This document shows, in pieces, positions 4,973 through 45,477 of a stretch of 64,000 nt of DNA. The stretch's first letter is position 1, and every line of letters starts with the position of its first letter. Source of the DNA: a virus (lineage: Duplodnaviria; Heunggongvirae; Uroviricota; Caudoviricetes); the IMG/VR virus record IMGVR_UViG_3300011115_000934, positions 97,983-161,982 of that record. One strand, written 5' to 3'. Position numbers and translations under genes: made by a program. Below the pieces are notes generated by a model. It was given only the letters and a program-made list of their open reading frames with translations. It did not search any database and was not told the origin of the DNA.

Positions 4973-4984
4973 AATAATTGTTAA

Positions 4985-5020: not shown

Positions 5021-5045
5021 AGTATTAGAAACAAATAAAAGAGTT

Positions 5046-5123
5046 ATGAAACAAATTAGAACCTTTGCAATTACATTTGTAGCAATGCTAATATTAATGA
5101 TTATTGTAGTAAATTTAAGATAG
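5046..5123 (+). CDS. 25-aa hydrophobic micro-protein (MKQIRTFAITFVAMLILMIIVVNLR)
   Basis: ATG 26 nt after promoter, single TM helix, stop directly abuts next ATG; below ORF-track length cutoff. Confidence 0.3.
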   Translation: MKQIRTFAITFVAMLILMIIVVNLR

Positions 5124-5124
5124 T

Positions 5125-5742: not shown

Positions 5743-5752
5743 AGCAAGAAAG

Positions 5753-21642: not shown

Positions 21643-23582
<1,940 letters not shown>

Positions 23583-28174: not shown

Positions 28175-28618
28175 ATGAAAAATGAATACAAAGGAACGAC
28201 CGTTTACGTGTATGCACTTCTAGACAGCAATGACAATCCAATCTATATTGGAAAATCTTCATCTCCTAAGAGTCGCTGCTACGGACACGCACAGCACTTT
28301 ACGGACAAAGTTGTAATGAAAATCTTAGATCGATACTATGATTTAGAGTCCTACTGGATTAGAAAGCTCCAAGAGGAGGGATACACTCTCCTAAACAAGG
28401 AGATTGATATGACTGAGGAGAGTTGGGAAGTGGGAGATCTTATTGAAATAAAGAAGCAAGCAAGAGTAGGAGTACTTCACACAACAACAGGAAATAGGTA
28501 TAAGAGTATATCCGAAGCTAGCAAAGCTTTAGGAATATCCTACAGTGCACTTCAGCAAACACTAAACTCCCCAACTAGACAACTATCCAATGAACATAAT
28601 GTAATCCGAGAAACATAG
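28175..28618 (+). CDS. GIY-YIG endonuclease with C-terminal HTH
   Basis: YVYALLDSNDNPIYIGKSS...R..H; C-terminal YKSISEASKALGISYSALQ (NUMOD1-like). Confidence 0.6.
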   Translation: MKNEYKGTTVYVYALLDSNDNPIYIGKSSSPKSRCYGHAQHFTDKVVMKILDRYYDLESYWIRKLQEEGYTLLNKEIDMTEESWEVGDLIEIKKQARVGVLHTTTGNRYKSISEASKALGISYSALQQTLNSPTRQLSNEHNVIRET

Positions 28619-28816: not shown

Positions 28817-30259
28817 ATGAAAGAAAAATTTCGTTATGTTAAGAAAGAGGATCGTAAGAAGATTCTTTTGTTATGCGATGATATTAGGATGCATTCCGGT
28901 ATCGCAACAATGGCCAGAGAGATTGTAGTAGGAACATCTCACCACTTTAATTGGATCAACCTAGGAGCAGCAATCAACCATCCAGAAGCAGGAAAGGGAT
29001 TTGACATCTCAGCTGAGGTAAACAAATTAACAGGAATAGAGGACTCAGATGTAAAAGTTCTTCCTAACAATGGTTATGGAGATGCAATGCAAGTTAGAGC
29101 TTTAATTGCCCAAGAACAACCAGATGCAATCTTTATCTTTACAGATCCAAGATACTGGGTATGGTTATTTGAAATAGAAAGAGAGATCAGAAATGAAATT
29201 CCTTTGATGTATTTAAACATTTGGGATGACTATCCAGCACCTCTTTACAATAAACCTTACTACGAGTCATGTGATTTGTTAATGGCAATTTCAAAACAAA
29301 CTAAAAATATTAATGAAATAGTTTTAGGAGAACAAGCAAAAGATAAAATCATTAAGTACGTTCCTCATGGAATAAATGATGAGCACTTCTTTCCAATGAC
29401 TTCGGTAGATCAATTGGAAGCATTAGGTGAGTTTAGAAAAAATTTATTCCAAGGAAAGGATATTGAATTCGTAGCATTCTTCAACTCAAGAAACATCAGA
29501 AGAAAATCTCCAGGAGATGTAATTCTTTCTTATAGAATGTTCTGTGATTTAATCGGAGAAGAAAAAGCTAAGAAGTGCGCTTTAGTAATGCATACACAAG
29601 CTGTAGACGAAAATGGTACAGACCTTTATGCAGTAAGAGAGGCAGTGTGTGATGACAGTTATGTAAATGTATTCTTCTCACAAGAAAGATTAGACACACC
29701 TCAAATTAATCTACTTTACAATATAGCAGATGTGGGATTACTTATTACTTCCAATGAAGGATGGGGATTATCTTTAACTGAAACTATGATGGCAGGTAAA
29801 ATGATTATTGCCAACGTAACAGGAGGTATGCAGGATCAAATGAGATTTACAGACGAGAACGGTAAGTGGATTGACTTCACTCCTGACTTCCCTTCTAACC
29901 ATAGAGGAACATATAAAGAGTGTGGAGAATGGGCAGTACCTGTGTTTCCTTCAAACATTTCAATGGTAGGTTCAGTTCCAACTCCTTACATCTTTGATGA
30001 TAGATGTGCACCAGAAGATGTAGCAAAAGCTTTAGAACAAGTTTACAACTTAGGAAAAGAAGAAAGAGATAGAAGAGGTGCAGCAGCTAGGGAATGGGTA
30101 ACTTCAGATGAATCAGGAATGTCAGCACGTCAAATGTGTGAGAATGTAATTGATTCAATGGATGAAACATTTGAAAAGTTTACTCCAAGATCTAGATTTG
30201 ATCTAATAAAAGTAACAGACAGACCAAAAAAATATATCACACATAAATTAATATACTAG
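28817..30259 (+). CDS. glycosyltransferase family 4-like (GT-B)
   Basis: EGWGLSLTETMMAGKMIIA = E-x7-E/GT1 signature. Confidence 0.7.
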   Translation: MKEKFRYVKKEDRKKILLLCDDIRMHSGIATMAREIVVGTSHHFNWINLGAAINHPEAGKGFDISAEVNKLTGIEDSDVKVLPNNGYGDAMQVRALIAQEQPDAIFIFTDPRYWVWLFEIEREIRNEIPLMYLNIWDDYPAPLYNKPYYESCDLLMAISKQTKNINEIVLGEQAKDKIIKYVPHGINDEHFFPMTSVDQLEALGEFRKNLFQGKDIEFVAFFNSRNIRRKSPGDVILSYRMFCDLIGEEKAKKCALVMHTQAVDENGTDLYAVREAVCDDSYVNVFFSQERLDTPQINLLYNIADVGLLITSNEGWGLSLTETMMAGKMIIANVTGGMQDQMRFTDENGKWIDFTPDFPSNHRGTYKECGEWAVPVFPSNISMVGSVPTPYIFDDRCAPEDVAKALEQVYNLGKEERDRRGAAAREWVTSDESGMSARQMCENVIDSMDETFEKFTPRSRFDLIKVTDRPKKYITHKLIY

Positions 30260-30261
30260 TT

Positions 30262-31548
30262 ATGAGTAAACCTACATTAGTAGTAAGCTGTCCAATCGAC
30301 ACTTACTCAGGATATGGAGCAAGAGCAAGAGATTTTGTACAATCAATTATAGATTTAGATAAGTACGATGTAAAAATATTGGGACAGAGATGGGGAGGAA
30401 CTAGATTTGGGTACTTAAAGGATCATGGAAACACTTCGTTAGCCTCAAGAATCATTCTACAACTAACACAACAACCAGACATTTGGATTCAAATCACAGT
30501 ACCAAATGAATTTCAAAAGGTTGGTAAGTATAACATTGGAGTAACAGCAGGAATTGAAACTACACTTTGTGATCCTTCTTGGATTCAAGGATGCAACAAC
30601 ATGGACTTGGTACTGGCATCAGCACAGCATGCTAAGAAAGTATTTGAAGAAAGTAAATTCAATATGCAAGATAATCAAACTGGACAAGTAACAGGTACAG
30701 TTGAGTTAAAAACAAAAGTAGAGGTTTTATTTGAAGGAGCTGACATAGAGAAGTATGCACCATTAGCATTACCAACTAAACTAGATCTTTCAAATATAGA
30801 GGAGCAGTTCTGCTTCCTAACAGTAGGACACTGGCTTCCAGGAGCATTAGGAGAGGATAGAAAGAATATAGGATACACTATTAAAGCATTCTTAGAAACA
30901 TTTAAGAATAAGAAAGCAGGACCTGCACTTATCTTAAAAGTACAAGCAGGATCAGGAACCTCTATTATGGATAGAGATGAGGTGTTAAATAGAATTGATT
31001 CAATCAGAAAGACAGTAAAAGGAAAATTACCAAACGTTTACCTGTTACATGGGGATATGTCTGATGCAGAAGTTAATGAACTATACAATCACGGTAAAGT
31101 AAAGGCAATGATCTCCTTAACAAAAGGAGAAGGATTTGGAAGACCCCTACTAGAATTCAGTTTAGTAAACAAACCAATCATAGCCTCAGGATGGTCAGGT
31201 CATATTGATTTCTTAGATAATCAATTCACTAAACAAATAGGAGGAACTCTGAATAATATACACCCATCAGCTGTAATTGATAAAATGATTTTAGCAGAGA
31301 GTCAGTGGTTCAGACCAGATGATGCTCTTGTAGGAAAGGCTTTGAAGGATGTGTTTGAGGATTACAAAGTTTATAAGGAATTAGCAAAGAGACAAGGACA
31401 TAGGTCTAGAACACAATTCTCGTATAATAAGATGAGAGAAACGCTAGATACTCTTCTAACACAATACATTCCTGAGTTTCCTAAGCAAGTTCAACTTAAA
31501 CTACCAACACTTAAGAAAATAGAACTACCAAAATTAAAAAAGATATAA
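30262..31548 (+). CDS. glycosyltransferase family 4-like (GT-B)
   Basis: EGFGRPLLEFSLVNKPIIA signature. Confidence 0.65.
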   Translation: MSKPTLVVSCPIDTYSGYGARARDFVQSIIDLDKYDVKILGQRWGGTRFGYLKDHGNTSLASRIILQLTQQPDIWIQITVPNEFQKVGKYNIGVTAGIETTLCDPSWIQGCNNMDLVLASAQHAKKVFEESKFNMQDNQTGQVTGTVELKTKVEVLFEGADIEKYAPLALPTKLDLSNIEEQFCFLTVGHWLPGALGEDRKNIGYTIKAFLETFKNKKAGPALILKVQAGSGTSIMDRDEVLNRIDSIRKTVKGKLPNVYLLHGDMSDAEVNELYNHGKVKAMISLTKGEGFGRPLLEFSLVNKPIIASGWSGHIDFLDNQFTKQIGGTLNNIHPSAVIDKMILAESQWFRPDDALVGKALKDVFEDYKVYKELAKRQGHRSRTQFSYNKMRETLDTLLTQYIPEFPKQVQLKLPTLKKIELPKLKKI

Positions 31549-32006
31549 TGGAAGAAAAAATGTCAATCTGTCCACATTGTGGAGGAAATGCTTGCTATGA
31601 ACAGCAAGTAAGCGAAGAAGTAACAACGAGCTTTTGCTTTGGTTGTGGATATTCAACTTCAACTCTAATGGTTGAGGGAGGAGAATTAGTAACCAAAACA
31701 CTAGAAGCATCACCGGAACTATATAAAGATCTTATGTTTATAAGTGAAGATAAAAAAGTTTGGTTCCCTTCAACAGTTACTCTTCCAAATAAAGGAATGG
31801 TATTCTTAGATGGAAATTCTAAAGACAGTTGGAAGTGGGCTGCAGTAAGCTCTATAGAGATTCTAGAAGAAGAGAAAGCAAAGTTCCCAAAAGGTCAGAC
31901 AACAAAAATGGATATGAAAAATATCAAACATTTTGACAAAGAAGACTTCATGGAAGCATTAGATGCTATCAACTTTTTTGATGTAGAAGTTGCAGAATCA
32001 AAATAG
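31548..32006 (+). CDS. zinc-ribbon protein
   Basis: CPHCGG...CFGCG. Confidence 0.45.
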   Translation: MEEKMSICPHCGGNACYEQQVSEEVTTSFCFGCGYSTSTLMVEGGELVTKTLEASPELYKDLMFISEDKKVWFPSTVTLPNKGMVFLDGNSKDSWKWAAVSSIEILEEEKAKFPKGQTTKMDMKNIKHFDKEDFMEALDAINFFDVEVAESK

Positions 32007-32024
32007 ATTTCGTATATTAATAGT

Positions 32025-32639
32025 ATGAAAATAAGTTATGCAATAACAGTTTGTAATGAATTGGAGGAAGTGAAAAGACTAGTCAACTTCCTCCTTTCCA
32101 ACAAACGAGAAGAGGATGAGATAGTAATACTTCTTGACCATTCAAATGGAAAAGATGAGGTATACAGGTACCTACTAACACTTCCAACCGAAGTACAGTG
32201 TAATAGAGATACATTCCAAGGACACTTTGCTGATTGGAAAAATCAACTAAACTCATACTGCAGTGGAGATTATATCTTCCAGATAGATGCTGATGAGATT
32301 CCTCATATCAATCTAATACAAAACCTACCTGAAATGCTGAAGACTAATGATGTCGATATGCTTAGAATCCCTAGAGTAAATACTGTAGAGGGCTTAACTC
32401 AAGAGCATATACAGAAGTGGGGATGGAATGTAAATGAAAAAGGATGGGTTAACTGGGCCGATTGGCAAATGAGAATATACAAGAATGCTCCTCACATTAA
32501 GTGGGTTAATAAAGTACATGAAGTATTAGAAGGATTTAAGATACACGGAATGCTTCCACCGGAAGAGGAATGGGCTTTATATCATCCAAAGACAATCGAC
32601 AGACAAGAGAAGCAGAATAATTATTACAACACTTTATAA
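32025..32639 (+). CDS. GT-A fold glycosyltransferase (family 2-like)
   Basis: N-terminal ISYAITVCNE..., DADE (DxD) motif. Confidence 0.55.
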   Translation: MKISYAITVCNELEEVKRLVNFLLSNKREEDEIVILLDHSNGKDEVYRYLLTLPTEVQCNRDTFQGHFADWKNQLNSYCSGDYIFQIDADEIPHINLIQNLPEMLKTNDVDMLRIPRVNTVEGLTQEHIQKWGWNVNEKGWVNWADWQMRIYKNAPHIKWVNKVHEVLEGFKIHGMLPPEEEWALYHPKTIDRQEKQNNYYNTL

Positions 32640-32647
32640 AATCAGTT

Positions 32648-33958
32648 ATGGATAGTATTTTAAATTTAGTACAAGAGTACATTACAAAAAAAGACAGTGA
32701 GAAGAAATGGGTAGCAGGAGAGGACTTAGTCCAATATGCAGGGCCTTACTTCGATGGCCAAGAAGCTCAGGCAGTTGTTAGGACTATGCTTGAAGGTTGG
32801 TTAGTTTTAGGAAAAGAAGGAGCAATGTTTGAAAGACGTTTCCCTAAGAAGCTAGGACAAAAGACTGGAGTTATTGTTAATAGTGGCTCAAGTGCTAATC
32901 TACTAATGATGTTAGCCTTAACATCTAAGAGAGGATTAAACCTACCAAAAGGTACAAAAGTAATTACTCCAATAGCAGGATTCCCAGCTACACTTAGTCC
33001 AACAATTCAAGTAGGCTTTACGCCAATATTTGTTGATATTGAATTAGAATCTCTAAACTTAGATCTAGATCAAGTAGAGCAAGCATGCATTGATCATCCA
33101 GATGCAAAGATAATTACTTTTGCTCACGTATTAGGTAATCCACCTAACATGGATCGATTAATGGAAATCGTAAACAAATACAATTTAATATTACTAGAAG
33201 ACTGCTGTGATGCTTTAGGAACAACTTACGATGGAAAGATGTTAGGATCATTTGGTAAAATGTCTTCATGTTCATTCTATCCAGCACACCACATTACAAT
33301 GGGTGAGGGAGGATTTGTAGCTTGTGGAGATGCTCATACAGAAAAGATTTTAAGAAGCTTTAGAGACTGGGGTAGAGGATGTTTCTGTCAAGGTAAAGCA
33401 AATGCTTTAGAATGTGGTTCCTGTGGAATAAGATTTAGTAACTGGTTGCCAAGTTTACCTAATGAGATCTTTGATCACAAATATACTTACGAAGAGATTG
33501 GTTACAACTTAAAGCCAACTGAGTTACAAGCAGCAATGGGTAATGTTCAGTTAGGTAAGTTGGAAGAGATTGGAGTACTAAGAAGAAGAAATCATAAAGC
33601 AATTGTTGATATCTTTAAAAAGTATGAGGACAAATTCATACTACCAAAGGCTACAGCTAAGTCAGATCCAGATTGGTTTGCAGTTGCATTAACACTAAGA
33701 GATGGAGTAGGGTTTACGAGATCTGAATTCTGCCAATACCTAGAGGCAAATAAGATTCAAACAAGACCATACTTCGCAGGTAACATTATGCTACAGCCAG
33801 GATACTCTCACTTAATTGATTCGAAAGAAGTAATAGAGAAGTTCCCAGTATCGAGAAAAGTAACAACAGATACTTTCTTCTTAGGATGCTCTCCAATTAT
33901 TACATTAGAACAAATTGAATATATTGGAACGATTGTAGACAAATTCTTCAACAAATAG
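32648..33958 (+). CDS. PMP-dependent NDP-4-keto-6-deoxyhexose 3-dehydrase (E1/DdhC-like) with Fe-S Cys motif
   Basis: DegT/AHBA-synthase fold; His replaces the Schiff-base Lys (SFYPAHHITMGEGG); CFC-x8-C-x2-C cluster (GRGCFCQGKANALECGSCG) like the E1 C-x-C-x7-C motif. Confidence 0.7.
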   Translation: MDSILNLVQEYITKKDSEKKWVAGEDLVQYAGPYFDGQEAQAVVRTMLEGWLVLGKEGAMFERRFPKKLGQKTGVIVNSGSSANLLMMLALTSKRGLNLPKGTKVITPIAGFPATLSPTIQVGFTPIFVDIELESLNLDLDQVEQACIDHPDAKIITFAHVLGNPPNMDRLMEIVNKYNLILLEDCCDALGTTYDGKMLGSFGKMSSCSFYPAHHITMGEGGFVACGDAHTEKILRSFRDWGRGCFCQGKANALECGSCGIRFSNWLPSLPNEIFDHKYTYEEIGYNLKPTELQAAMGNVQLGKLEEIGVLRRRNHKAIVDIFKKYEDKFILPKATAKSDPDWFAVALTLRDGVGFTRSEFCQYLEANKIQTRPYFAGNIMLQPGYSHLIDSKEVIEKFPVSRKVTTDTFFLGCSPIITLEQIEYIGTIVDKFFNK

Positions 33959-33959
33959 T

Positions 33960-34940
33960 ATGAGGATAGCATTTATGACAGAGATGGGGTTTGAGGGAAA
34001 GGTTCCCTCTAACCACTCTAACATGCGAACTGAGTTTGCTTGGATGCATACATTGGATGCTGACCACAAACACATATACAACTACAAAGAAGTAAAAGGC
34101 TATGATCACATCTTTATTATTTTTCCTAAAGGAAGAGTGTACTTAGATGCCTGTGGAAGTAGGTTAGTGGATCAAGTAAATCCTGTATCGGGATTACTAG
34201 CTTCAAATATAGTAGAGCAACTAAAACAGTATAACAAGAAAGTTTACATAGTACAAGAAGGTCCTCACTGGTTATGGAATGACTATGAGATGGCTGATCA
34301 GATTGAATTCTACAACATGCTTACATCTTCAGATGGTATCTTTGCACACAATGAACATGACGTAAAATACTATAAAGGAATGTTTCCTAACGTACCTGTG
34401 CACGTTATGCCTACTCTAATGATTGATTCTATAGTACAAGACATTCAACCTGTTACAGAGGAGAAAGTTATTATAGGAGGAAACTTTGCTAGATGGTATG
34501 GAGGAATGGAAAGCTTCACAGTAGCACAAAGATTACAAGTTCCAATATGGGGACAGACATCTCACGCAATGAGAGATGGAGAGGATCAATTAGTAAATCA
34601 TCTACCAAGAGTTATGTGGACAGATTGGATGAAACAACTAAGTTCATTCAAGTATGCTGTACATCTTATGCCAACCATAGCAGCAGGAACGTTTAGTTTA
34701 AATTGTGCTTACTTTGGTATTCCTTGTATAGGAAATGAGAAAGTAGACACACAAAGATTATGTCATCCAGACCTAGCAGTTGACGTAGAGGATGTAGATA
34801 AAGCAGCAATGCTGGCTGAAAGGCTGAGTTATGATGAAGAGTTCTACCAAGAGTGCAGCAAAACAGCTCAGGAGAATTATAAAAAATACTACAGCCAAGA
34901 GTTGTTTAAACAGAAAATAAATAGTATAATAGTATTATGA
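33960..34940 (+). CDS. hypothetical protein (sugar-island)
   Basis: 326 aa, no motif recognised. Confidence 0.5.
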   Translation: MRIAFMTEMGFEGKVPSNHSNMRTEFAWMHTLDADHKHIYNYKEVKGYDHIFIIFPKGRVYLDACGSRLVDQVNPVSGLLASNIVEQLKQYNKKVYIVQEGPHWLWNDYEMADQIEFYNMLTSSDGIFAHNEHDVKYYKGMFPNVPVHVMPTLMIDSIVQDIQPVTEEKVIIGGNFARWYGGMESFTVAQRLQVPIWGQTSHAMRDGEDQLVNHLPRVMWTDWMKQLSSFKYAVHLMPTIAAGTFSLNCAYFGIPCIGNEKVDTQRLCHPDLAVDVEDVDKAAMLAERLSYDEEFYQECSKTAQENYKKYYSQELFKQKINSIIVL

Positions 34941-37318
34941 TAGTACAAATAACAATGGTTAGGAATGAAAAATTCCTAATAGAAAAACTACTTCCTATAT
35001 GGACAAAATATGCAGATGGCTTTGTATTTTTAGTTGATACCTCCAATGATGGAACAGAGGAGTTTCTTAGAGAAGCAGCTAAGCAGTATAACATTCTGGA
35101 TATAATAGTTCAAGAAGCAGACGATAATACTTTATGGGTAGCTTCGGAAGTAAGACAAAAAATGTTTGACACAGCTAAGCAGTATACAAATAAGATAGTA
35201 TGTCTAGATGCAGATGAATATTTTGACGGTTCCATGACTAAAGAGGAATTAGAAAACACATTAGACTCACACCAAGATACCCTATTTGATCTGAGATGGG
35301 TTCAGTACACATCTACTAATACTATCAGAGTTGATGGCCCTTGGAAAAATAACACAAAAGGTAGGATAGGAGTGTTCAATAAAGAATACACCTTCAGGTA
35401 TGACACAATGCATGCAACTCACTTACCAATCCCACAGAACCAATACATGTTTCCTGAAGAGAGTTTGTTTATAGCTCATCTACAGTGGTTAGATAGAAAC
35501 ATAGTCGGAATAAAGCAGTACTGCTATAAAGTGCAAGACTATGCAAGTCATGTTAAGTTTGGAGCTAATGTTGTAGAAAAGGAGGCGTATGATGCTTCTA
35601 TAAATGATTTTAATTGGGAAGAGGAGTACTACAACTATCCACTTAAAATACAAGAAGACATTTACGAACACATGATTAATGGAGACTACTATAGAACAGA
35701 TATCATAAAACAGTATACAAAAGAATTAGATATTCCAAATTTAGGAGATTGGGGATTGAATATTCACGATAGTGTTCCAATGTACTTCTGTACAGGTGCA
35801 GATGAAAAGCACTATCCACTTCTACTAAATATGATAGGAAGTATTCATAAATATAACTTTTACGATACTGTAGAGATTAGAATATACGATTTAGGATTAA
35901 ATGAGAGACAGAAACAAGAACTGAAGAACCTAAAGAAAGTTAACATATACCAAGTAGAACAAACTAACTCAGAAATATTAAAAGATGTCCAGACAAATCC
36001 AACTAGATTTGTTAAAGGACTGTTCTCATGGAAACCAGTTCTAATAAAGGACTCACTGGACCACTGTCCGTACGTTCTATACCTAGATGCTGGAACTGAG
36101 ATAAGAAAGCCTTTGAATAGTTTATTTAAACATATAATTCAAAATAAGTATCTGTTTTTTGATTGTGGACATTCAATAAGATGGATGAGTACAGATTATA
36201 ATATTCAAAGTTTGGATCTACAATCTAAAGAAAATTCTTGGATACTTAAAGACGATACCTTTGGAGTTGATGCTGGGTTTATGGGCTTGTCGAGAGAAGT
36301 CTATGATGAGTTTGTACTACCTATGTATGAGCTATCTAAAAATCTTAAAAACTTCGAAGACAATGGTTCTTGCCCTGATGGATGGGGTTCAGGGAGACAC
36401 GACCAAACACTGTTTAGTATATTAGCTAGAAAACTAAACTATAGTATTATAGCAAGTAAGGATGATTACAAGGACTGTAAGTTAGTAGTAGATGGAAAGG
36501 ATATAGAATTTCACATTACTCATGCTAGAGCAGATGTTAAAGACAGTACAGTTGTCTATAGATCTAGGTGGGATTTGTCCTATAGTAAGTACAAAGACAA
36601 TGTAGCATCTATAAAAAGGGATTATATACTTTCTGTAATAACTGCTATAGGAAGTCTTAGTAAGTATGAGAAATTCTTAGAACAATACTTTGAGAATATA
36701 TTACAGCAAATAGGTTTCTCAAGATTTGAATTTATAATAGTATACAGTGAGTGGAGTAGTATTTTTGATAAGTACACTAACTATGTAAATATTAAGTTCG
36801 TAAAAGAAGATCAGCAGAAAGGAGTATACAATGCTTGGAACATAGGAATACTTAATTCAACTACAGAATACATTACAAACTGGAACGTAGATGACATCAG
36901 ATTTGATATCAGCACCATTACAAAGTACCATGCACTTTCTAAAAATATAAATACAGATTTAGCATACAGCTACTATATAGGAATAGATGAGAGTGAAATA
37001 GGCATAGTTGACCTGAATGAGCAGCAATATATTGAGTACCCTGACAATTTTCACGAGCAGGCCCTATCGATGTGTATGGCAGGTCCTGATCCAATGTGGA
37101 GAAAATCTACTCACATATTTTATGGATACTTTGATTATACCAACTATAGTATAATAGGAGATTGGGAAATGTGGGTACGGATGGCTAAGAATGGATTAAC
37201 CTTCACACTACTTCCTTACGTATTAGGTGTCTATGTAGATCACAAGGACACAGTTAGTAAGAGTAGTGAGGAAAAAGTGGAACAACAAAAACAAAACTTA
37301 CGAAGACAGTATACGTAA
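34937..37318 (+). CDS. 793-aa multidomain glycosyltransferase (several GT-A-like modules)
   Basis: N-terminal GT2-like segment (VFLVDTSNDGT, DADE) and further nucleotide-diphospho-sugar-transferase-like segments. Confidence 0.55.
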   Translation: MIVQITMVRNEKFLIEKLLPIWTKYADGFVFLVDTSNDGTEEFLREAAKQYNILDIIVQEADDNTLWVASEVRQKMFDTAKQYTNKIVCLDADEYFDGSMTKEELENTLDSHQDTLFDLRWVQYTSTNTIRVDGPWKNNTKGRIGVFNKEYTFRYDTMHATHLPIPQNQYMFPEESLFIAHLQWLDRNIVGIKQYCYKVQDYASHVKFGANVVEKEAYDASINDFNWEEEYYNYPLKIQEDIYEHMINGDYYRTDIIKQYTKELDIPNLGDWGLNIHDSVPMYFCTGADEKHYPLLLNMIGSIHKYNFYDTVEIRIYDLGLNERQKQELKNLKKVNIYQVEQTNSEILKDVQTNPTRFVKGLFSWKPVLIKDSLDHCPYVLYLDAGTEIRKPLNSLFKHIIQNKYLFFDCGHSIRWMSTDYNIQSLDLQSKENSWILKDDTFGVDAGFMGLSREVYDEFVLPMYELSKNLKNFEDNGSCPDGWGSGRHDQTLFSILARKLNYSIIASKDDYKDCKLVVDGKDIEFHITHARADVKDSTVVYRSRWDLSYSKYKDNVASIKRDYILSVITAIGSLSKYEKFLEQYFENILQQIGFSRFEFIIVYSEWSSIFDKYTNYVNIKFVKEDQQKGVYNAWNIGILNSTTEYITNWNVDDIRFDISTITKYHALSKNINTDLAYSYYIGIDESEIGIVDLNEQQYIEYPDNFHEQALSMCMAGPDPMWRKSTHIFYGYFDYTNYSIIGDWEMWVRMAKNGLTFTLLPYVLGVYVDHKDTVSKSSEEKVEQQKQNLRRQYT

Positions 37319-37331
37319 CAAACTATAGCTT

Positions 37332-38126
37332 ATGCAAAAAAATAAACTAAAAGTAGCAGTTTGCCTAAGTGGAGAAGTGCGCCACTTTACTCACGACCTT
37401 GTTGTAGAAGGTTTTCAAAAATACATACAAACTTGGAACCCTGATATATTTATCTCAACTTGGGACCACTTAGGTAGGTCAATGAATCATGAGTATATTT
37501 CACCAAGAGAATTAAAAGAGCAGCAAGAAGACTTAGAACTCTACATAAAACAGATCTACCCAGGAATTAAATCAGTTGAGATAGAAAACTACAATAGGTG
37601 GATAGATCACATGCCAAAAGACGAATATAACCTAGCCTATTCAGACCTATACTTCTCAAGGACAATTAATAGTTATACACAATTGTACAAAATATACAAA
37701 GCTAATAATTTAAAGATTTGTTATGAAAAAGAACAAGGGATCAAATATGATATTGTACTTCGTGTTAGACCTGATAACTTATTTATAAGACCACTCGCTC
37801 TAGAGGAAGTGCGGCAAAAAACTATCTACAATGTAAATCTAGGAGGTGAGGCTTACTACCCTAATCGCATCTATGATATGTTCTTTTATGGTGGAAGTAG
37901 TGAAATGGATATATTATGCAACTCTTATTTAAAATATAAAGAACTGCTATACTCACCTTTTAACAATGGACTCTGCCCTAGAGATACCTGCAGACTACTC
38001 TACCTACAGGCAACCAACTCAGGACTAAGTGTTGAATCAACTAAAGATAGGTCCTGTGATATATACAGAGGACAGACCTTTGAAGAGTACTACAACCTAT
38101 TGCAGAGTTGGGGAGGATTAGATTAA
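37332..38126 (+). CDS. hypothetical protein (sugar-island)
   Basis: 264-aa ORF. Confidence 0.5.
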   Translation: MQKNKLKVAVCLSGEVRHFTHDLVVEGFQKYIQTWNPDIFISTWDHLGRSMNHEYISPRELKEQQEDLELYIKQIYPGIKSVEIENYNRWIDHMPKDEYNLAYSDLYFSRTINSYTQLYKIYKANNLKICYEKEQGIKYDIVLRVRPDNLFIRPLALEEVRQKTIYNVNLGGEAYYPNRIYDMFFYGGSSEMDILCNSYLKYKELLYSPFNNGLCPRDTCRLLYLQATNSGLSVESTKDRSCDIYRGQTFEEYYNLLQSWGGLD

Positions 38127-38142
38127 TATAAACACATAAAAA

Positions 38143-39948
38143 ATGATAGCAGTTATACCAATGCTAGGCATAGGAGAACGTTTTGCAAAAAATGGATACT
38201 CTGAGAGCAAGCCTTTTATACGAGTAAATGCAGAGATCCTTATTACAAAGGTGGTTAGTAATCTGTATGAGCATTTTTCTAAAATAGTAATTATATGCAG
38301 TACTGAAAATGCTGAGCAGGTTAGAGCTCTGTTTGATGAAAGAGTTACGATTGTACAAAGTGCAGCACCTACTAGAGGAGCAGCAGAGACAGTTCTGCTT
38401 TCGTATTTAGAGTTAGGAGAACAAGAGCAAATAGTATGTATGGACTGTGATACAGTACTATCACAAGAAGCTTTGTGTAAATTACCACAAGTAGATAGTA
38501 ATGGTATTTTAAGTTTTCTAGACAAAGACCGTACAGGATTGTATAGCTACCTATCATTAGACAAAAGCAGAAACATATTAGAGATACGAGAGAAGGTTGC
38601 TATAAGCGATGTAGCAAATGCAGGAGTATATGTTTTTAGTAATAAAGAAATAATGAAACTTGCTTGCGAAAATGTACTAGAGCAAACAAACGAATTATAC
38701 CTTAGCAAAGCAATACAAACACTAATAGACCAAAACTACAAAGTAGTATCAGTAGACATCTCAGGAGAGTTTACATGCTACGGAACACCTTACCAATTGC
38801 AGAGTCAAGCTAGAAATGAAAGTAAAGATAAACAATTAACTCTATGTTTTGATATTGATGGAACACTTGTGTACGATCTCTACACCAACCCTACAGCAGT
38901 AACTAAAAATGTATTGTTCTGCAATCAGGCATATAAAAGTGGGTGCAAAATAATACTACACACAGCTAGAGGAATGTTATCAACAAATTCAAATGTTCAA
39001 GAGATAGAGGCAAAACGTCCTCACATAGAGAAAGTTCTTAAGGACTTAGGTATATGTTACCATGAGTTGGTATTAATGAAACCCTACGCAGACATCTATA
39101 TTGACGACAAAGCTGTACCAGCTTATAAGAATTTAGAAAAGGCAACAGGACTATATCTGTCAGAGGAGCATACAGCTAGAGCTCACAACAAGATTATTGT
39201 AAATGGAGATACTATTGAAAAACAAGGAAGCATTGAGGGGGAAGACTACTACTACAGAACACTCCCAAAGGATCTACAGAAGTACTTTCCAACAGTAGTT
39301 AGTACCACACCAGAGAGTATAGTGCTGTCTAGGATTGTAAAGCCTACATACTCGTCTCTATTACTTTCACAAAGACTTTCCAAGACAGACCTAGATATGT
39401 TAGTCGAGTCACTAAACGTAATTCACAACTTCCCTTCAGACAATATTGAAATAGATCTTAACTGGGCCTATGGTTCAAAGATTAAAGAAAGGTTTACTAA
39501 GTTTAGCTCTTTGTATAAAAAGTTAGGAGTAGATACTACTCAGTATGAGCAGTTGTGTGATGTTTGTTTTGATAATAAGTATGGACGCATACATGGAGAT
39601 ACTGTATTCACCAACATCTTTGCAGGAGATGCTAAGTGCAGCTTCATAGATATGAGAGGAGAGTGGGACAATAGGTTGACAGTTGGAGGAGACATATACT
39701 ACGACTTTGCCAAAGTTCTACAAAGCTTAACAGGATACGACTATGCATTACACAATGAACCTATCCAGAATGAATACCTAAAGAGCTTGAGAGAGCATTT
39801 TGTAGGCAAGCTATTGCAGATACATCCAACACTTTCAATAGACCAGTTGCAAAGTAAAGTTAGATTACTTTACATTTCGTTAATACCTTTTCATAGAGAC
39901 GATTTACAGAGGTGTGGTAGATTTATTAAGTTGCTAGACAGTATTTAA
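38143..39948 (+). CDS. tri-domain enzyme: sugar-/alcohol-phosphate nucleotidyltransferase + HAD phosphatase + APH/choline-kinase-fold kinase
   Basis: N-terminal AVIPMLGIGERF...KPF (DdhA/RfbA-like NTase), middle LCFDIDGTLV (HAD motif I), C-terminal IHGDTVFTNIF (Brenner HGDxxxxN kinase motif). Confidence 0.6.
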   Translation: MIAVIPMLGIGERFAKNGYSESKPFIRVNAEILITKVVSNLYEHFSKIVIICSTENAEQVRALFDERVTIVQSAAPTRGAAETVLLSYLELGEQEQIVCMDCDTVLSQEALCKLPQVDSNGILSFLDKDRTGLYSYLSLDKSRNILEIREKVAISDVANAGVYVFSNKEIMKLACENVLEQTNELYLSKAIQTLIDQNYKVVSVDISGEFTCYGTPYQLQSQARNESKDKQLTLCFDIDGTLVYDLYTNPTAVTKNVLFCNQAYKSGCKIILHTARGMLSTNSNVQEIEAKRPHIEKVLKDLGICYHELVLMKPYADIYIDDKAVPAYKNLEKATGLYLSEEHTARAHNKIIVNGDTIEKQGSIEGEDYYYRTLPKDLQKYFPTVVSTTPESIVLSRIVKPTYSSLLLSQRLSKTDLDMLVESLNVIHNFPSDNIEIDLNWAYGSKIKERFTKFSSLYKKLGVDTTQYEQLCDVCFDNKYGRIHGDTVFTNIFAGDAKCSFIDMRGEWDNRLTVGGDIYYDFAKVLQSLTGYDYALHNEPIQNEYLKSLREHFVGKLLQIHPTLSIDQLQSKVRLLYISLIPFHRDDLQRCGRFIKLLDSI

Positions 39949-40011: not shown

Positions 40012-40968
40012 ATGACAAAAGTAGTTTACATAACAGGTTGTTTAGGATTTATAGGATCTTACGTAACAAGAGCATGCCTCGAGAAAGGATGGTATGTTAA
40101 AGGAGTTGATAAGAAGACCTATGCAGCCAATAAAGATTTATTAAAAGAGTTTAAGGAGTATGAAAACTTTTCATTTGTAGATTGTGACATAAATGATTTA
40201 AAGTTTCTATACGACTGTGACTATATAATTAATACAGCAGCCGAGACGCACGTAGGCAACTCTATAATGAACTCAGACGTATTTGTACATTCAAACGTAA
40301 ATGGAGTTCATAACTTACTAGAGTTAATAAAAAACCATAGAGGAGAGAATGCAACCAAGCCTACACTACTTCACTTTAGTACAGATGAAGTATATGGAGA
40401 TATTGAGGAAGGAGAGCATATAGAAACTGATATACTTAAACCATCTAACCCATACTCAGCTACTAAAGCAGCAGCAGATATGTTAGTAACAGCTTGGGCA
40501 AGAACTTACAAGCTTCCCTATATTATAATAAGACCAACAAACAATTATGGAATAGGACAGTATGTAGAAAAACTAATACCTAAAGCCTGCAAGTACCTAA
40601 GACTTGGTAAAAAGATTCCTTTACACAATAATGGTACTCCAATCAGAAACTGGCTCCATGCTCAAGATACGGCTGAGGCTGTCATCACAATCATCGAATC
40701 AGGAGTACAGAATGAAATCTATAATATTTGTGGAGGATTTGAGCAAAATAATTTGGATACTATCAAAAAAGTTCTTATATTATATAATGAAAACAAAGAG
40801 CATGTGTTAGAGGATTTTGTAGACTTTTCATGTGACAGACAAGGACAGGATGTTAGGTATGCTTTGAATGATGATAAACTAAGAGCATTAGGATGGAAGC
40901 CTACAATCGACTTTGACTCAGAACTAAAACATGTTGTAAAGTATTATAGAGAAAAATTTATATGGTAA
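40012..40968 (+). CDS. NDP-hexose 4,6-dehydratase/epimerase (extended SDR)
   Basis: GCLGFIGS Rossmann motif, YSATK (YxxxK). Confidence 0.7.
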   Translation: MTKVVYITGCLGFIGSYVTRACLEKGWYVKGVDKKTYAANKDLLKEFKEYENFSFVDCDINDLKFLYDCDYIINTAAETHVGNSIMNSDVFVHSNVNGVHNLLELIKNHRGENATKPTLLHFSTDEVYGDIEEGEHIETDILKPSNPYSATKAAADMLVTAWARTYKLPYIIIRPTNNYGIGQYVEKLIPKACKYLRLGKKIPLHNNGTPIRNWLHAQDTAEAVITIIESGVQNEIYNICGGFEQNNLDTIKKVLILYNENKEHVLEDFVDFSCDRQGQDVRYALNDDKLRALGWKPTIDFDSELKHVVKYYREKFIW

Positions 40969-42716
40969 AAGTAAGTGATGTAATCGTTCAATACCTTAAG
41001 GCTAATAACATAGAAATTGTATTTGGGATAATTGGTTCAGCCAACTCTCACATATTCAATTCAATATTAGAAGAAGGGAGTATCAAATTGGTATCGGTAC
41101 ATCACGAACAAGCTGCTGTAATGGCTATGGGAGCTTACTATCGTTCAACTGGAAAGATGGCTGTTGCATTAGTAACAGCAGGAGGAGGAGCCTCAAATGC
41201 TTCAACAGGAATTCTTTCCAACTGGGCTGACTCTATTCCTGGAATTATTATCTCAGGACAGGAACAGTCGTATTACCTAGATGAGTACAGAGATATGAGA
41301 ATGTTCGGAGTACAAGGCTATGATGCAGTAAAGGCATATGAAAACTGTACTAAGATGTCGCATGTAATTACAGAAGATACTCTACATACAATAATGCCAT
41401 TCGCATTTGCTTTAACACAAGAAGGAAGACCAGGTCCAGTATTCTTAGAAGTACCCTTCGACGTTCAGAGTAAGATGGTAGAAGATAGAGGAGTACAGAT
41501 TGGAACAACCACCTTTACAAATCCTCACATATCCTCTAGTACCGATTACATACTAGCAGCACTAGCACAAGCAAAGCGACCAGTAGTGTTAGGAGGTCAC
41601 GGTGTTAAGCTGGCCAAAGCAGAAGGAGCTTTCAAACAATTTGTAGAAGAGTACAATGTACCAACAGTATTAAGTTGGTCAGCAGTGGACTTGCTTGATG
41701 ATAACAATCTAAACTATTTTGGAAGACCAGGAGTTCAAGGACAGAGAGCAGCTAACTTTATAGTACAGAACTCTGATTTACTAATTGTATTAGGAAGCAG
41801 ACTATCACTACTACAAACAGGATACAAGAGAGAGGACTTTGCTCCAAATGCTAATATTATTCATGTTGACATAGATGATGCAGAGATTAGAAAGTTTAAA
41901 GGAAAGAATATTGTAGCAGATGCTGGAGATATCCTTAGTAGCTTGAACTCTAAAGTAAGAGTTGAACTTGATATAGAGGAATGGATCACATACTGTAATC
42001 AAATCAAACAAAAGTATCCTTTGGTAATGCCTGAGCATTTAGCAGATCCTACTAATTCATATACATTTATTGATAAATTCTCACAAAAAGTACCAGATAA
42101 CTATACAATTGTTACTGATATGGGAACAGCATTGTTGAGTGGATTCTATGGATGGAGAATTAAACCTAACCAAAAAATGTTTACTTCTCTAGGATTAGGA
42201 GAGATGGGATACGGATTAGCAGCAGCAGTCGGAGCAGGGTTTGGACAAAGACCAGTGATGTGTTTAAACTGTGATGGAGGTATGATGATGAACCTACAAG
42301 AGTTGCAAACAATCAAGACACACAACCTTCCAGTAAAGATTATTATATTCAACAATGACGGATACCTAATGATCAAACATACCCAGAATATGTTATTCAA
42401 AGGAGCTCGTACTTGTGTAGATCAACAATCAGGAGTAACATTACCTGACTATAGAAAAGTAGCACACGCATTTGATTTTGAATACTTCACAGAGGATAGG
42501 GTAGATGACTTCCTAGCATTTGAAGGCCAGGCTATCATGGAAGTGTTTATGAACCCAGATCAAGAATTTATTCCTAAAGTAAGAGGAATGAAATTAGAAG
42601 ACAATACAATTCAAGCAGGACTGCTAGAAGAAATGTCACCACTACTACCATTAGAACAAATAGAACAAGCTATGGTTGCAGGTATTAATCAAAGAAGTAA
42701 AACAGTTGTAAGATGA
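40962..42716 (+). CDS. thiamine-diphosphate-dependent carboligase (acetolactate-synthase large-subunit/YerE-like)
   Basis: Three-domain ALS layout, GGGASNASTGI and TPP-binding GLGEMGYGLAAAVGAG...NNDGY. Confidence 0.8.
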   Translation: MVKVSDVIVQYLKANNIEIVFGIIGSANSHIFNSILEEGSIKLVSVHHEQAAVMAMGAYYRSTGKMAVALVTAGGGASNASTGILSNWADSIPGIIISGQEQSYYLDEYRDMRMFGVQGYDAVKAYENCTKMSHVITEDTLHTIMPFAFALTQEGRPGPVFLEVPFDVQSKMVEDRGVQIGTTTFTNPHISSSTDYILAALAQAKRPVVLGGHGVKLAKAEGAFKQFVEEYNVPTVLSWSAVDLLDDNNLNYFGRPGVQGQRAANFIVQNSDLLIVLGSRLSLLQTGYKREDFAPNANIIHVDIDDAEIRKFKGKNIVADAGDILSSLNSKVRVELDIEEWITYCNQIKQKYPLVMPEHLADPTNSYTFIDKFSQKVPDNYTIVTDMGTALLSGFYGWRIKPNQKMFTSLGLGEMGYGLAAAVGAGFGQRPVMCLNCDGGMMMNLQELQTIKTHNLPVKIIIFNNDGYLMIKHTQNMLFKGARTCVDQQSGVTLPDYRKVAHAFDFEYFTEDRVDDFLAFEGQAIMEVFMNPDQEFIPKVRGMKLEDNTIQAGLLEEMSPLLPLEQIEQAMVAGINQRSKTVVR

Positions 42717-43570
42717 AAATAAAAGTAGCAATTATTGGTACAGGTAATATCGGAACAGATCTATTACTGAAAGCCCTAAAGACAGACTTCATGGATGTAG
42801 TAGCATTTGTAGGTCGTAGGTTAGATTCGGATGGAATGCTAACAGCTAAGAAACATAGCATATTAATATCTGATCAAGGTATTCAATACTTTATTGATAA
42901 TCCAAATTGTTGTGATGTGGTATACGATTGCACATCAGCAGCAGATGCTATTGAGCATGCTAAGTTATTTAAACAACAAGGAATAAAAGTAATTGACTTA
43001 ACTCCAGCCAAGGTAGGAGATATGTGTGTACCGGATGTTAACTCTGAGATTATCTTAACAGATGGTAATGTTAATATGATTACTTGTGGAGGACAAGCTT
43101 CCATGCCAATGTTACACTTATTATCAAAAGAGTGTACAGGATTAGAATATATTGAAGTAGTCTCTCAAATTGCATCTAAGAGTGCAGGAATGGCTACAAG
43201 GATAAATGTAGACAACTATATCCAAACAACACAGAAGGCTATTGCAAAGTTTACAGGTTGTTCAAATAATAAAGTAATCTTAAATCTTAATCCTGCTGAG
43301 CCTTGTGTTGATATGCAAACAACAATCTTCATCAAAGCAAAGAAAGTTAATTTTGAAAACTTAACAGAGAAGGTTTTAGATAAGATTGAAGAGTTAAGAA
43401 CTTACATCCCTTACTACGAAATGGTTCTTCCTCCAACTATGAACGACAGTGGAGTAGTTGTAATGAGTATCAAAGTAAGAGGTACAGGAGATTACCTTCC
43501 AGCATATGCAGGTAACCTAGATATTATTAACTGTGCAGCAATTAAAGTAACAGAAAGATTAGTAAAATGA
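42713..43570 (+). CDS. acetaldehyde dehydrogenase (acylating), DmpF/MhpF-like
   Basis: N-terminal MKIKVAIIGTGNIGTDLL and catalytic-Cys loop ITCGGQASMP as in DmpF; ATGA overlap with the upstream TPP-enzyme gene. Confidence 0.7.
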   Translation: MKIKVAIIGTGNIGTDLLLKALKTDFMDVVAFVGRRLDSDGMLTAKKHSILISDQGIQYFIDNPNCCDVVYDCTSAADAIEHAKLFKQQGIKVIDLTPAKVGDMCVPDVNSEIILTDGNVNMITCGGQASMPMLHLLSKECTGLEYIEVVSQIASKSAGMATRINVDNYIQTTQKAIAKFTGCSNNKVILNLNPAEPCVDMQTTIFIKAKKVNFENLTEKVLDKIEELRTYIPYYEMVLPPTMNDSGVVVMSIKVRGTGDYLPAYAGNLDIINCAAIKVTERLVK

Positions 43571-44565
43571 GAAAAGTAATCATAACAGATTCAAGTCTTA
43601 GAGATGGAAATCATAGCGTTAAGCATACTATCAGTTTAGATAGTATAGCAAGGTATTGTCAATTTGCTGATAAGGCAGGAGTACCAATTGTAGAGGTAGG
43701 TCATGGAAATGGATTAGCAGCTTCTTCTCTACTTGTAGGTAAGTCTGTTAACACAGATGAGGAAATGCTAATAACTGCTAAAAACAATTTGAAGAATTCC
43801 AAACTAGGAATTCACATGATACCAGGACTAGCAACACTGGAACATACTAGAAAGGCTATTGACCTAGGAGTAGATGTAGTAAGAGTAGCAACACATTGTA
43901 CTGAAGCAACTTTGTCTAAGTCTCACATCGAAGCATTAGCAAAAGCAGATGTGGAAGTGTTCGGAGTGCTAATGATGAGTGCCTTGATCACTCCTCAGGA
44001 ATTACTAGAGCAAACTAAAATAATGGAAGGGTACGGAGCTAGGGCTATTATTATAATGGACTCTACAGGAACATACCTACCATTTGATGTACAACAAAGA
44101 ATCTCTTTACTAAAAAGCAACCTAAGCATACCAGTAGGATTTCATGCTCACAACAACTTAGGATGTGCAGTAGCAAATTCCTTAATAGCAGTAGAGTTTG
44201 GAGCAGATTATATTGACGGATGTATTAGAGGTTTTGGAGCTGGAGCAGGTAACGCTCCACTAGAACTTCTTATACCAGTACTAGAACAAAGCGGCTTCCA
44301 AGTAGGAATAAACTTTCAAGAGACAATCAAAGAAGCAGATAATGCAATGGACTACTTGGTTCCTTCAGCACCTATCACAACACCAATTAACATATTAACA
44401 GGACTTAAAAAACTATTCTCAGGATTTGAAAAGCCAATTGTAAGTGCTTCTAAACTATACGGAATAGAGTACTCATCTCTTATCTTTGAATTAGGAAATA
44501 GAAAGTTAGTAGCCGGGCAAGAAGATCTTATATTGGAAATAGCACAGAAGCTAAAAAAGAAATAG
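43567..44565 (+). CDS. 4-hydroxy-2-oxovalerate aldolase-like (DmpG/MhpE, DRE-TIM metallolyase)
   Basis: ITDSSLRDGNHSVKH metal-site signature; ATGA overlap with the dmpF-like gene. Confidence 0.7.
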   Translation: MRKVIITDSSLRDGNHSVKHTISLDSIARYCQFADKAGVPIVEVGHGNGLAASSLLVGKSVNTDEEMLITAKNNLKNSKLGIHMIPGLATLEHTRKAIDLGVDVVRVATHCTEATLSKSHIEALAKADVEVFGVLMMSALITPQELLEQTKIMEGYGARAIIIMDSTGTYLPFDVQQRISLLKSNLSIPVGFHAHNNLGCAVANSLIAVEFGADYIDGCIRGFGAGAGNAPLELLIPVLEQSGFQVGINFQETIKEADNAMDYLVPSAPITTPINILTGLKKLFSGFEKPIVSASKLYGIEYSSLIFELGNRKLVAGQEDLILEIAQKLKKK

Positions 44566-45477
44566 ATGAACGTAATCATTACAGGAGGTAATGGATTTTT
44601 AGGATCTAACATTGCTAGAAGGCTTTTAAAACAAAATCATAAGGTTTATATATTTTCAAACAATATAAATAACATAGAGGATATACTACCTGAGGTTATA
44701 TTTGACTATAGTGACACTAAGTCTTTGCCTGCCTTTGAAAAAAAGATAGAGACATTCTCACCAGACATAGTAATCCATTGTGGATGGAGTGGAGGAAATA
44801 GCTATGCAGATACAAACAGCGTAGATCAATTCTACGAAAATGTAGATCCGAGCATATCCCTACTACAGCTTTTAGGTAAACTTAACAAGAAGCCTAAATT
44901 TGTAGGCTTTGGAAGCTTTGCAGAATATGGAAACATTAGTACGCCAGTAAGTGAAGAAGTGCAGGAAATACCTACAAACTTATATGGACTCTCTAAATAC
45001 ACTTTTAAAAAGTATAGTGAGATGTTATGTAGCCGTTACGAAATGGAATGGGTATGGATAAGACCTTGCTACGTATACGGACCAGGAGATGTAAGCACAA
45101 GACTACTTCCTAGTATAGTAGCAAAATTTTTAAGTAATGAAACAGTAGTACTTGATGAGTGTACCTCCATTGCAGATTATATTTACATAGATGATTTTGT
45201 TAATTCAATTTATTTCCTTATATTAACAGAACACACAGGGGTATACAACATATGCTCAGGAAAGCAGTACAAGATAAGAGATATAGTTGAGCAAGTTCAC
45301 AAACAAGTAGGAAGCAGTAGCACTATTAAGTTTGATAGTACTTTAGCAAGATCCTCAACATATTCGTACATATGTGGAAGTAGGAGTAAGTTAGACAATG
45401 CTATAGGAAATCTAGAACAAATATCTTTAACTGAAGGATTAGAAAAAGTAATAATTAGTAATAAATTAAGTAAATGA
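44566..45477 (+). CDS. NAD(P)-dependent epimerase/reductase (SDR)
   Basis: TGGNGFLGS, YGLSKY (YxxxK). Confidence 0.7.
   Translation: MNVIITGGNGFLGSNIARRLLKQNHKVYIFSNNINNIEDILPEVIFDYSDTKSLPAFEKKIETFSPDIVIHCGWSGGNSYADTNSVDQFYENVDPSISLLQLLGKLNKKPKFVGFGSFAEYGNISTPVSEEVQEIPTNLYGLSKYTFKKYSEMLCSRYEMEWVWIRPCYVYGPGDVSTRLLPSIVAKFLSNETVVLDECTSIADYIYIDDFVNSIYFLILTEHTGVYNICSGKQYKIRDIVEQVHKQVGSSSTIKFDSTLARSSTYSYICGSRSKLDNAIGNLEQISLTEGLEKVIISNKLSK

Follow-up and report, generated by a model that had tools for sequence, protein, structure and literature searches.

The 3-dehydrase gene and its active-site residues

The stretch of DNA analysed here, called the window below, covers 64,000 nucleotides (positions 97,983 to 161,982) of the IMG/VR virus record IMGVR_UViG_3300011115_000934 and belongs to a myophage related to Flavobacterium phage vB_FspM_immuto (160 kb; immuto below), its closest cultured relative. 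An intact open reading frame (ORF) of 436 aa, running from ATG to stop at 32648-33958 on the plus strand, is predicted to encode a nucleoside diphosphate (NDP)-4-keto-6-deoxyhexose 3-dehydrase of the E1/RfbH/DdhC type, which would use pyridoxamine 5'-phosphate (PMP) and a [2Fe-2S] cluster. The product belongs to the DegT/DnrJ/EryC1 family (Pfam PF01041, DegT_DnrJ_EryC1, E = 2.3e-75, residues 36-430). Against the NCBIfam equivalog model of RfbH (NF011936) it scores 452.7 bits (E = 1.1e-135), above the curated cut-off of 423, and the second-best NCBIfam model, PseC, reaches only 163 bits. Its top match in the PDB is the E1 of Yersinia pseudotuberculosis (3BCX, E = 7.6e-102), and the end-to-end alignment of the two covers 422 residues, 42% of them identical. 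In the same search ColD, the guanosine diphosphate (GDP)-4-keto-6-deoxymannose 3-dehydratase (PDB 2GMS), comes far below E1 (1.2e-47); 9WVY, a 2026 entry named 'putative NDP-4-keto-6-deoxyglucose-3-dehydratase' that lacks the Cys loop, comes at 1.3e-50. The E1 of Yersinia and Salmonella (AscC/DdhC/RfbH; 3BCX and 3BB8) shares its fold and length with the phage protein; it acts as a cytidine diphosphate (CDP)-6-deoxy-L-threo-D-glycero-4-hexulose 3-dehydrase, whereas its counterpart here is phage-borne and unaccompanied by ddhD, the gene of the reductase E3.

The active-site residues agree with this assignment. In the alignment with 3BCX and 3BB8, His214 (codon CAC, checked at 33287-33289, plus strand) falls on E1 His220, the catalytic His at the position of the pyridoxal phosphate (PLP)-binding Lys; this correspondence is fixed by the H220K mutant 3BB8, which differs from 3BCX at the first His. 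The phage motif 'FYPAHHITMGEGG' is identical in Yersinia E1, and so is 'EDCCDALG', which holds Cys187 (codon checked at 33206-33208, plus strand), at the position of the distal cluster ligand, E1 Cys193. The Fe-S loop, C245-F-C247-x8-C256-x2-C259, is encoded at 33380-33424 (plus strand), and its C245, C247 and C259 correspond to E1 C251, C253 and C261. The E1 residues C193, C251, C253 and C261 are those that we take to be the [2Fe-2S] ligands, after Agnihotri et al. 2004.

The conservation of these positions was followed in an alignment of 165 E1 sequences, made up of the window protein, Yersinia E1 and 83 viral and 80 cellular homologues. H214, C187, C245, C247 and C259 are invariant in all of them. 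Since the cellular loci were fetched by patterns containing 'EDCCD' or 'SFYPAHH', the invariance of C187 and H214 in the cellular set is partly circular; C245, C247, C259 and the entire viral set are unaffected by this retrieval. Cys186, the neighbour of Cys187, varies among the cellular homologues. The phage protein thus keeps all four cluster Cys positions of the Yersinia and Salmonella enzyme, but the spacing differs between the third and fourth ligands: the conserved pattern is C-x57-C-x-C-x11-C in the phage protein and C-x57-C-x-C-x7-C in E1, owing to an insertion of four residues in the Fe-S loop (window 33395-33415, around residues 250-256 of the phage protein). This insertion is typical of the phage clade and corresponds to a gap in 75 of the 80 cellular homologues. 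C256 sits within it and is a Cys in only 40 of the 83 viral sequences, being likewise a gap in 75 of the 80 cellular ones.

The original prediction of an E1/DdhC-like, PMP-dependent 3-dehydrase is therefore borne out by the RfbH score, the match to 3BCX, the His and the four cluster Cys, and its reading of an AHH motif in which His replaces the PLP lysine holds, with Lys standing at that very position in 3BB8. The cluster that it proposed, CFC-x8-C-x2-C, was right in part. The string is present (C245, C247, C256, C259) and three of its Cys are conserved; C256, however, is not conserved and lies in the insertion, so one ligand was mis-assigned, and the distal C187 was omitted. With the cluster Cys aligned to those of E1, a His at the Lys position and E values of 7.6e-102 for E1 and 1.2e-47 for ColD, sequence comparison confirms an E1/RfbH/DdhC-type 3-dehydrase rather than an ordinary DegT aminotransferase.

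These residues also bear on whether the enzyme requires a reductase. It could work like ColD, by enamine hydrolysis with PMP regenerated from glutamate, or as a 4-aminotransferase like reductase-free SpnQ. ColD shares with the phage protein the DegT fold, the His in place of Lys and the deoxygenation at C-3, yet it works with neither an Fe-S cluster nor a reductase; together with the Cys-less 9WVY it illustrates that His-type 3-dehydratases can operate without a cluster. Similarly, the E1-type enzyme SpnQ transaminates in the absence of a reductase (PMC8987622). Nevertheless, the phage protein retains all the cluster cysteines, and its E1 score lies far above its ColD score. The four Cys are invariant in the 83 viral homologues, which are 62-99% identical to the query, and this invariance argues for selection on the cluster. 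Moreover, the thiamine diphosphate (ThDP) enzyme encoded downstream requires a 4-keto acceptor and not a 4-amino sugar. A reaction independent of any reductase is consequently very unlikely.

The sugar island and a candidate branched-sugar route

The dehydrase gene opens an island of co-directional, tightly packed genes, all on the plus strand, with intergenic gaps of -7 to 63 bp. The island follows a conserved block of backbone glycosyltransferases at 28817-32639 (plus strand), in which Pfam recognizes GT1, GT1, a 152-aa protein and GT2. Nucleotide identity to immuto is 81% up to about 32542, just 5' of the dehydrase gene, and the two sequences diverge beyond. The syntenic slot of immuto (L001 17672-18871, immuto35A_93) holds a DegT aminotransferase that retains the Lys ('AIKH') and is without the Cys pair. 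The islands of both phages thus open with a DegT-fold gene of unlike chemistry, E1 here and a Lys-type aminotransferase in immuto. That the island was gained recently by horizontal transfer was dismissed on two grounds: a GC content of 35.5% in the island and 34% in the rest of the window, and an identity of no more than 47% between the phage E1 clade and cellular genes.

Two island genes would supply the substrate of the dehydrase. A sugar-1-phosphate nucleotidyltransferase fused to a haloacid dehalogenase (HAD) domain (38143-39948, 601 aa; Pfam NTP_transferase and Hydrolase_3) presumably makes the NDP-hexose. It is not of the RfbF type: TIGR02623 gives no match and the NCBIfam matches are limited to weak ones to GlmU-N and RmlA-long. 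The transferase forms the N-terminal part, and no assignment covers the stretch from about residue 330 to residue 601. In a sister locus (L003 17567-18937) the fusion has the opposite order, starting with a beta-phosphoglucomutase-like HAD domain, and that protein is not an RfbF-type cytidylyltransferase either. The next gene (40012-40968) encodes an RmlB-like NDP-glucose 4,6-dehydratase, the predicted maker of the E1 substrate, which scores 309 bits with the deoxythymidine diphosphate (dTDP) model TIGR01181 (below the cut-off of 365) and 70.8 bits with the CDP model TIGR02622. The dehydrase and an RmlB-like dehydratase occur together in 77 of 84 viral loci.

The CDP-type supply genes, those of a glucose-1-phosphate cytidylyltransferase and a CDP-glucose 4,6-dehydratase, were not found in the island (no TIGR02623 match; dehydratase scores of 309 against 71 bits). 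In the cellular E1 loci that were checked, the dehydratases are CDP-type (of the TIGR02622 type) and RfbF is present, with TIGR02623 scoring above its cut-off. In the phage loci, RmlB-like dehydratases and another nucleotidyltransferase, with a HAD or beta-phosphoglucomutase-like domain as its fusion partner, stand in place of the DdhA and DdhB that accompany the Yersinia and Salmonella enzyme. Since the island partners are RmlB-like, this gene context suggests that the nucleotide carrier is probably not CDP.

Downstream of the dehydratase, four genes resemble a known set of sugar-branching enzymes. A ThDP carboligase of the YerE/ErwE type, acetolactate-synthase-like, is predicted at 40962-42716 (Pfam TPP_enzyme_N, M and C; all NCBIfam acetolactate-synthase-like models under their cut-offs). 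It is followed by an acetylating acetaldehyde dehydrogenase of the DmpF/BphJ/ErwJ type (42713-43570; TIGR03215, 322.4 bits, cut-off 282) and by a 4-hydroxy-2-oxovalerate aldolase of the DmpG/BphI/ErwI type (43567-44565; TIGR03217, 338.9 bits, cut-off 286), which is predicted to provide a C5 keto-acid donor. A short-chain dehydrogenase/reductase (SDR), either reductase or epimerase (44566-45477; Pfam Epimerase, 8.5e-38), is a candidate side-chain ketoreductase of the YerF/ErwF type. An FkbM-family methyltransferase (45474-46112) marks the island end and a GT2 glycosyltransferase (46131-47402) closes it, both recognized by profile scans. Between the dehydrase and the nucleotidyltransferase lie a double GT2 glycosyltransferase of 793 aa (34937-37318; Pfam Glycos_transf_2 in two stretches) and the two ORFs discussed in the next section.

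The erwiniose pathway of Pectobacterium atrosepticum, as assigned by Steitz et al. 2022 (PMC9306805), comprises a ThDP enzyme (ErwE), a reductase (ErwF), an aldolase resembling BphI (ErwI) and a dehydrogenase resembling BphJ (ErwJ). ErwI and ErwJ produce 4-hydroxy-2-oxopentanoate, and ErwE joins this donor to a 4-keto-3,6-dideoxy sugar, the product of E1 (PMC9306805). The enzymes encoded at 40962-45477 match the ErwE, ErwJ, ErwI and ErwF types. By analogy to this pathway (PMC9306805), the 40962-42716 product may add a branch at C-4 of the E1 product, and E1 would be the step that creates the acceptor ketone, as ligation of the ErwE type uses its 4-keto-3,6-dideoxy product. The comparison with the erwiniose and yersiniose A pathways (the latter with YerE and YerF of Yersinia) is one of enzyme types adjoining E1, and the phage ThDP enzyme is likened to ErwE by type and description; the phage gene order (E, J, I, F) differs and the front end is RmlB-like rather than CDP-type. 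The 2-OH of the sugar is probably kept, as Pfam and NCBIfam scans found no NDP-hexose 2,3-dehydratase among the island ORFs. The original prediction had stopped at the synthesis of 3,6-dideoxyhexoses and missed this pathway context; the ThDP, DmpF, DmpG and SDR neighbours make a ThDP-branched sugar, of the erwiniose or yersiniose type, the likely product.

The same association recurs beyond the window. Among the 84 viral loci, 34 combine the dehydrase with a ThDP enzyme of the YerE/ErwE type, 12 of them with both DmpF and DmpG as well, and about 24 combine it with a split pyruvate dehydrogenase (PDH)-E1 alpha/beta pair, so that most loci have one of the two ThDP types. The erwiniose-type module (ThDP carboligase, DmpF, DmpG and SDR) is also found at L004 16506-20898 and in L086-L088. 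In sister phages the split pair (E1_dh and Transket_pyr) occupies the slot of the single-chain ThDP enzyme, as at L002 6128-7300 and L003 12384-13559. The presence of two ThDP types at one island position suggests that the branch-forming step is swapped as a module, and that the branch chemistry therefore varies between sister phages. The pairing of E1 with a ThDP enzyme is seen in 27 of the 80 cellular loci, three of which have both DmpF and DmpG.

The missing reductase and the source of electrons

The original prediction had seen no E3 gene in the island, and this absence extends to the whole window. No Fer2, FAD_binding_6, NAD_binding_1, ferredoxin or flavodoxin domain turned up when every window ORF of 60 aa or more was scanned with Pfam. 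Two E3 hidden Markov models (HMMs) were also run, with the --max option: the first was built from bona fide E3 genes adjoining E1 in Pseudomonas, Aeromonas and Bermanella (those of Pseudomonas and Aeromonas confirmed by Pfam as Fer2 + FAD_binding_6 + NAD_binding_1) and the second from a wider set including relatives that consist of a ferredoxin-NADP reductase (FNR) part only. With a best E of 0.39 in the 64 kb window, neither produced a match there, in the complete immuto genome or in the 84 related viral loci (1.49 Mb of sequence, up to 10 kb from E1). The immuto annotation lists no ferredoxin, flavodoxin or FNR. An unbiased clustering of all E1 neighbours returned SDR enzymes as the only near-universal ones.

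The reductase, or a phage ferredoxin or flavodoxin, could be encoded outside the window, as about 90 kb of the genome lies there and some phages, such as cyanophages, carry a [2Fe-2S] ferredoxin. Against this stand the full immuto genome, negative by both annotation and HMM, and the empty 10 kb surroundings of E1 in the 84 viral loci. A scan of IMG/VR with two motifs taken from the E3 alignment yielded 35 candidates, not one of which was confirmed. Finally, a tblastn search of INPHARED with E3 returned cyanophage petF, and full-length matches solely in records that resemble host DNA (Salmonella 'phage' fragments and Acinetobacter 'phage MD-2021a' contigs). It is thus quite unlikely that the partner lies elsewhere in the phage genome.

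It had also been proposed that one of two unassigned island ORFs, 33960-34940 or 37332-38126, replaces E3. Neither has a Pfam match, and the former (326 aa), immediately 3' of the dehydrase gene, is close to E3 in length. Their predicted structures argue otherwise. The AlphaFold2 model of the 33960-34940 product (pLDDT 83.7) points to a GT-B fold glycosyltransferase, with the GT4 BshA entries 5D01, 5D00 and 2JJM as best Foldseek matches in the PDB (E about 1e-9). That of the 37332-38126 product (pLDDT 90.5) points to a GT-A fold glycosyltransferase, and its PDB matches are exclusively glycosyltransferases (COLGALT1 9EVJ and GT6 4AYL, E about 1e-6, TM-score 0.4-0.5). No Cys cluster, flavin or NAD(P)H motif is present in either ORF, the E3 HMMs match neither of them, and they accompany E1 in only 10/84 and 1/84 viral loci, respectively. 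The notion of the 326-aa ORF as a cryptic E3, which its size and position had raised, was rejected on account of its fold and co-occurrence pattern, and the replacement of E3 by either ORF is an extremely improbable idea, already largely refuted.

A further possibility is that a dedicated host partner, either an E3 of the DdhD/AscD kind or an FNR-only protein, gives the electrons, in which case the phage would be restricted to hosts that make 3,6-dideoxy sugars. The cellular loci surveyed for such partners are the 80 E1 loci closest to the phage protein, a non-random set in which 53 have at least 5 kb on both sides. A regular expression for Fer2 + RxYS proteins picked out three of the 80, and hmmsearch and jackhmmer then added the FNR-only group. 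A canonical E3 (Fer2 + FAD_binding_6 + NAD_binding_1) does stand beside E1 in Pseudomonas, Aeromonas and Bermanella, and in about 11 further cellular loci an FNR-only gene of 231-253 aa (NAD_binding_1 with or without FAD_binding_8, no Fer2) directly adjoins it, for example at L016 11441-12184, L063 11293-12027, L029 11290-11985 and L009 9231-9968. The FNR-only protein may be a truncated E3, which would have to pass electrons to the E1 cluster even though it lacks a ferredoxin domain. Yet only 13 of the 53 well-flanked cellular loci have either type of partner: three carry a canonical E3, ten an adjacent FNR-only gene and 40 neither. Furthermore, no cellular E1 found in 185,579 species genomes exceeds 47% identity to the phage clade, which makes co-adaptation to the E3 of a single host unlikely, and it spans many different phage backbones. 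Dependence on a dedicated host partner therefore appears unlikely.

The absence of E3 is rather ordinary, given that just 3 of 53 cellular loci have a canonical one and that SpnQ provides a precedent. This E1-type enzyme, with an equal [2Fe-2S] motif, runs on ferredoxin/ferredoxin-reductase or flavodoxin/flavodoxin-reductase pairs instead of E3 (PMC8987622). SpnQ, the TDP-4-keto-2,6-dideoxyglucose 3-dehydrase of the spinosyn forosamine pathway, compares by description with the phage enzyme in its His and [2Fe-2S] motif, in the lack of an E3 in its cluster and, probably, in a nucleotide other than CDP; it differs in acting after 2-deoxygenation, in actinobacterial secondary metabolism. The puzzle implied by the original prediction, that E1 requires a dedicated E3, is consequently weaker than it was stated, with 40 of 53 cellular loci having no E3-like gene. 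The window also encodes the radical-SAM enzyme QueE (12994-13788). Radical-SAM enzymes need a low-potential reductant, and the phage thus already depends on low-potential electron donors of its host for other purposes.

Proposed mechanism, phage clade and wider meaning

We favour, with a probability of roughly 60%, a functional E1-type dehydrase that receives electrons from a general ferredoxin or flavodoxin reductase system of the host and feeds an erwiniose-like branched-sugar pathway. This proposal builds on the family membership, the conserved catalytic and cluster residues, the absence of E3 in the window and in related phages and the set of enzymes that the island encodes; from these we infer the cofactors, the electron source, the nucleotide carrier and the product. 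PMP would form a Schiff base with the NDP-4-keto-6-deoxyhexose, His214 would take the C4' proton and the 3-OH would depart. The resulting 3,4-glucoseen-PMP adduct would be reduced in two one-electron steps through a [2Fe-2S] cluster on C187, C245, C247 and C259, yielding the NDP-4-keto-3,6-dideoxyhexose. In the absence of a dedicated phage E3, the electrons would most likely come from a general host ferredoxin or flavodoxin with its NAD(P)H reductase, as for SpnQ. The E1 product would then serve as acceptor for the ThDP carboligase, with the aldolase and the acetaldehyde dehydrogenase supplying the donor 4-hydroxy-2-oxopentanoate, and the SDR would reduce the side chain to give an erwiniose-like C4-branched 3,6-dideoxy sugar. 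The many glycosyltransferases of the island may attach this sugar to an acceptor.

Several points weigh against this proposal. The phage clade is known from sequence alone, and the partner 4,6-dehydratase is RmlB-like, so that the substrate is probably unlike that of the characterised E1. The four-residue insertion in the cluster loop could change cluster binding or the docking of the partner, and C193, C251, C253 and C261 are the presumed ligands of E1, after Agnihotri et al. 2004. The genome measures roughly 150-160 kb, of which the window covers 64 kb, so that an E3 or a ferredoxin could lie elsewhere in it, and both immuto as a proxy and the motif-based scan of IMG/VR are of limited sensitivity.

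The clade itself is large and well separated. Metagenomic homologues of the phage E1 number thousands, with 70-96% identity among the 120 matches listed, and the E1 of 80 IMG/VR loci is 62-99% identical to the query. An E1 with 99% identity is encoded on the IMG/VR contig 3300042484_002275, which is 150.7 kb long. The best cellular match in the 185,579 species genomes reaches 47%, which leaves the phage clade sharply separate from cellular sequences, the Yersinia and Salmonella enzyme included. The 84 viral loci show the clade dispersed over many different phage backbones. Viral ascC/ddhC/rfbH genes have previously been listed among the auxiliary metabolic genes of marine viromes (PMC10653327), and the phage E1 gene itself is thus of a known kind. 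Its pathway context appears of more interest than the gene, and the missing E3 is a modest observation and not a surprising one.

Other window genes concern different functions. The 7-deazaguanine genes comprise QueD/PTPS (10972-11433), the radical-SAM QueE mentioned above and a GTP cyclohydrolase I (16842-17483). A 266-aa ORF at 17464-18264 has no Pfam match, but the corresponding neighbourhood of immuto includes a gene annotated as a DNA-guanine transglycosylase (DpdA) of 264 aa; this gene set and the ORF together point to a phage DNA modified with 7-deazaguanine. A SegE-like GIY-YIG homing-endonuclease-like ORF (12170-12988) lies between QueD and QueE. A second GIY-YIG ORF, with NUMOD1 (28175-28618), separates the first GT1 from a PD-(D/E)XK nuclease; at this place immuto has just a 183-bp ORF. 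A GroES and GroEL pair is found at 21643-23582, as in immuto. Finally, genes at 3000-6160, flanked by calcineurin-like phosphoesterases, may form an RNA-repair set. An RNA ligase is encoded at 3830-4972 and a protein with a cREC ('cyclic-phosphate processing receiver') domain at 5753-6160, and an AAA_33 ORF of the set is kinase-like.

Yersiniose, erwiniose and caryophyllose exemplify the branched 3,6-dideoxy sugars, rare antigenic determinants of bacterial lipopolysaccharides that also occur in antibiotics. As a tentative proposal, held as possible rather than probable, an aquatic phage clade may have domesticated an E1-type dehydrase without a dedicated reductase and with a non-CDP substrate, RmlB-derived and possibly linked to dTDP. 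The loop insertion would perhaps be adapted to host ferredoxin or flavodoxin, and the enzyme would feed C-branched 3,6-dideoxy sugars resembling erwiniose, yersiniose or eurekanate. If this is true, C-branched sugars would decorate the virion, the surface of the infected cell or another target, and the branch chemistry would differ from one sister phage to another as the ThDP module is swapped. For annotation, the absence of ddhD beside rfbH should not be taken to mean a broken pathway. The clade offers many natural E1 variants that are evidently independent of E3 and could define what the interaction of E1 with its reductase really needs, and it also represents a toolbox of ThDP enzymes and aldolases for biocatalysis. 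A whole route of this kind in widespread Flavobacterium-type phages suggests that exotic glycans may be built by the phages themselves, from modules exchanged at one genomic hot spot.

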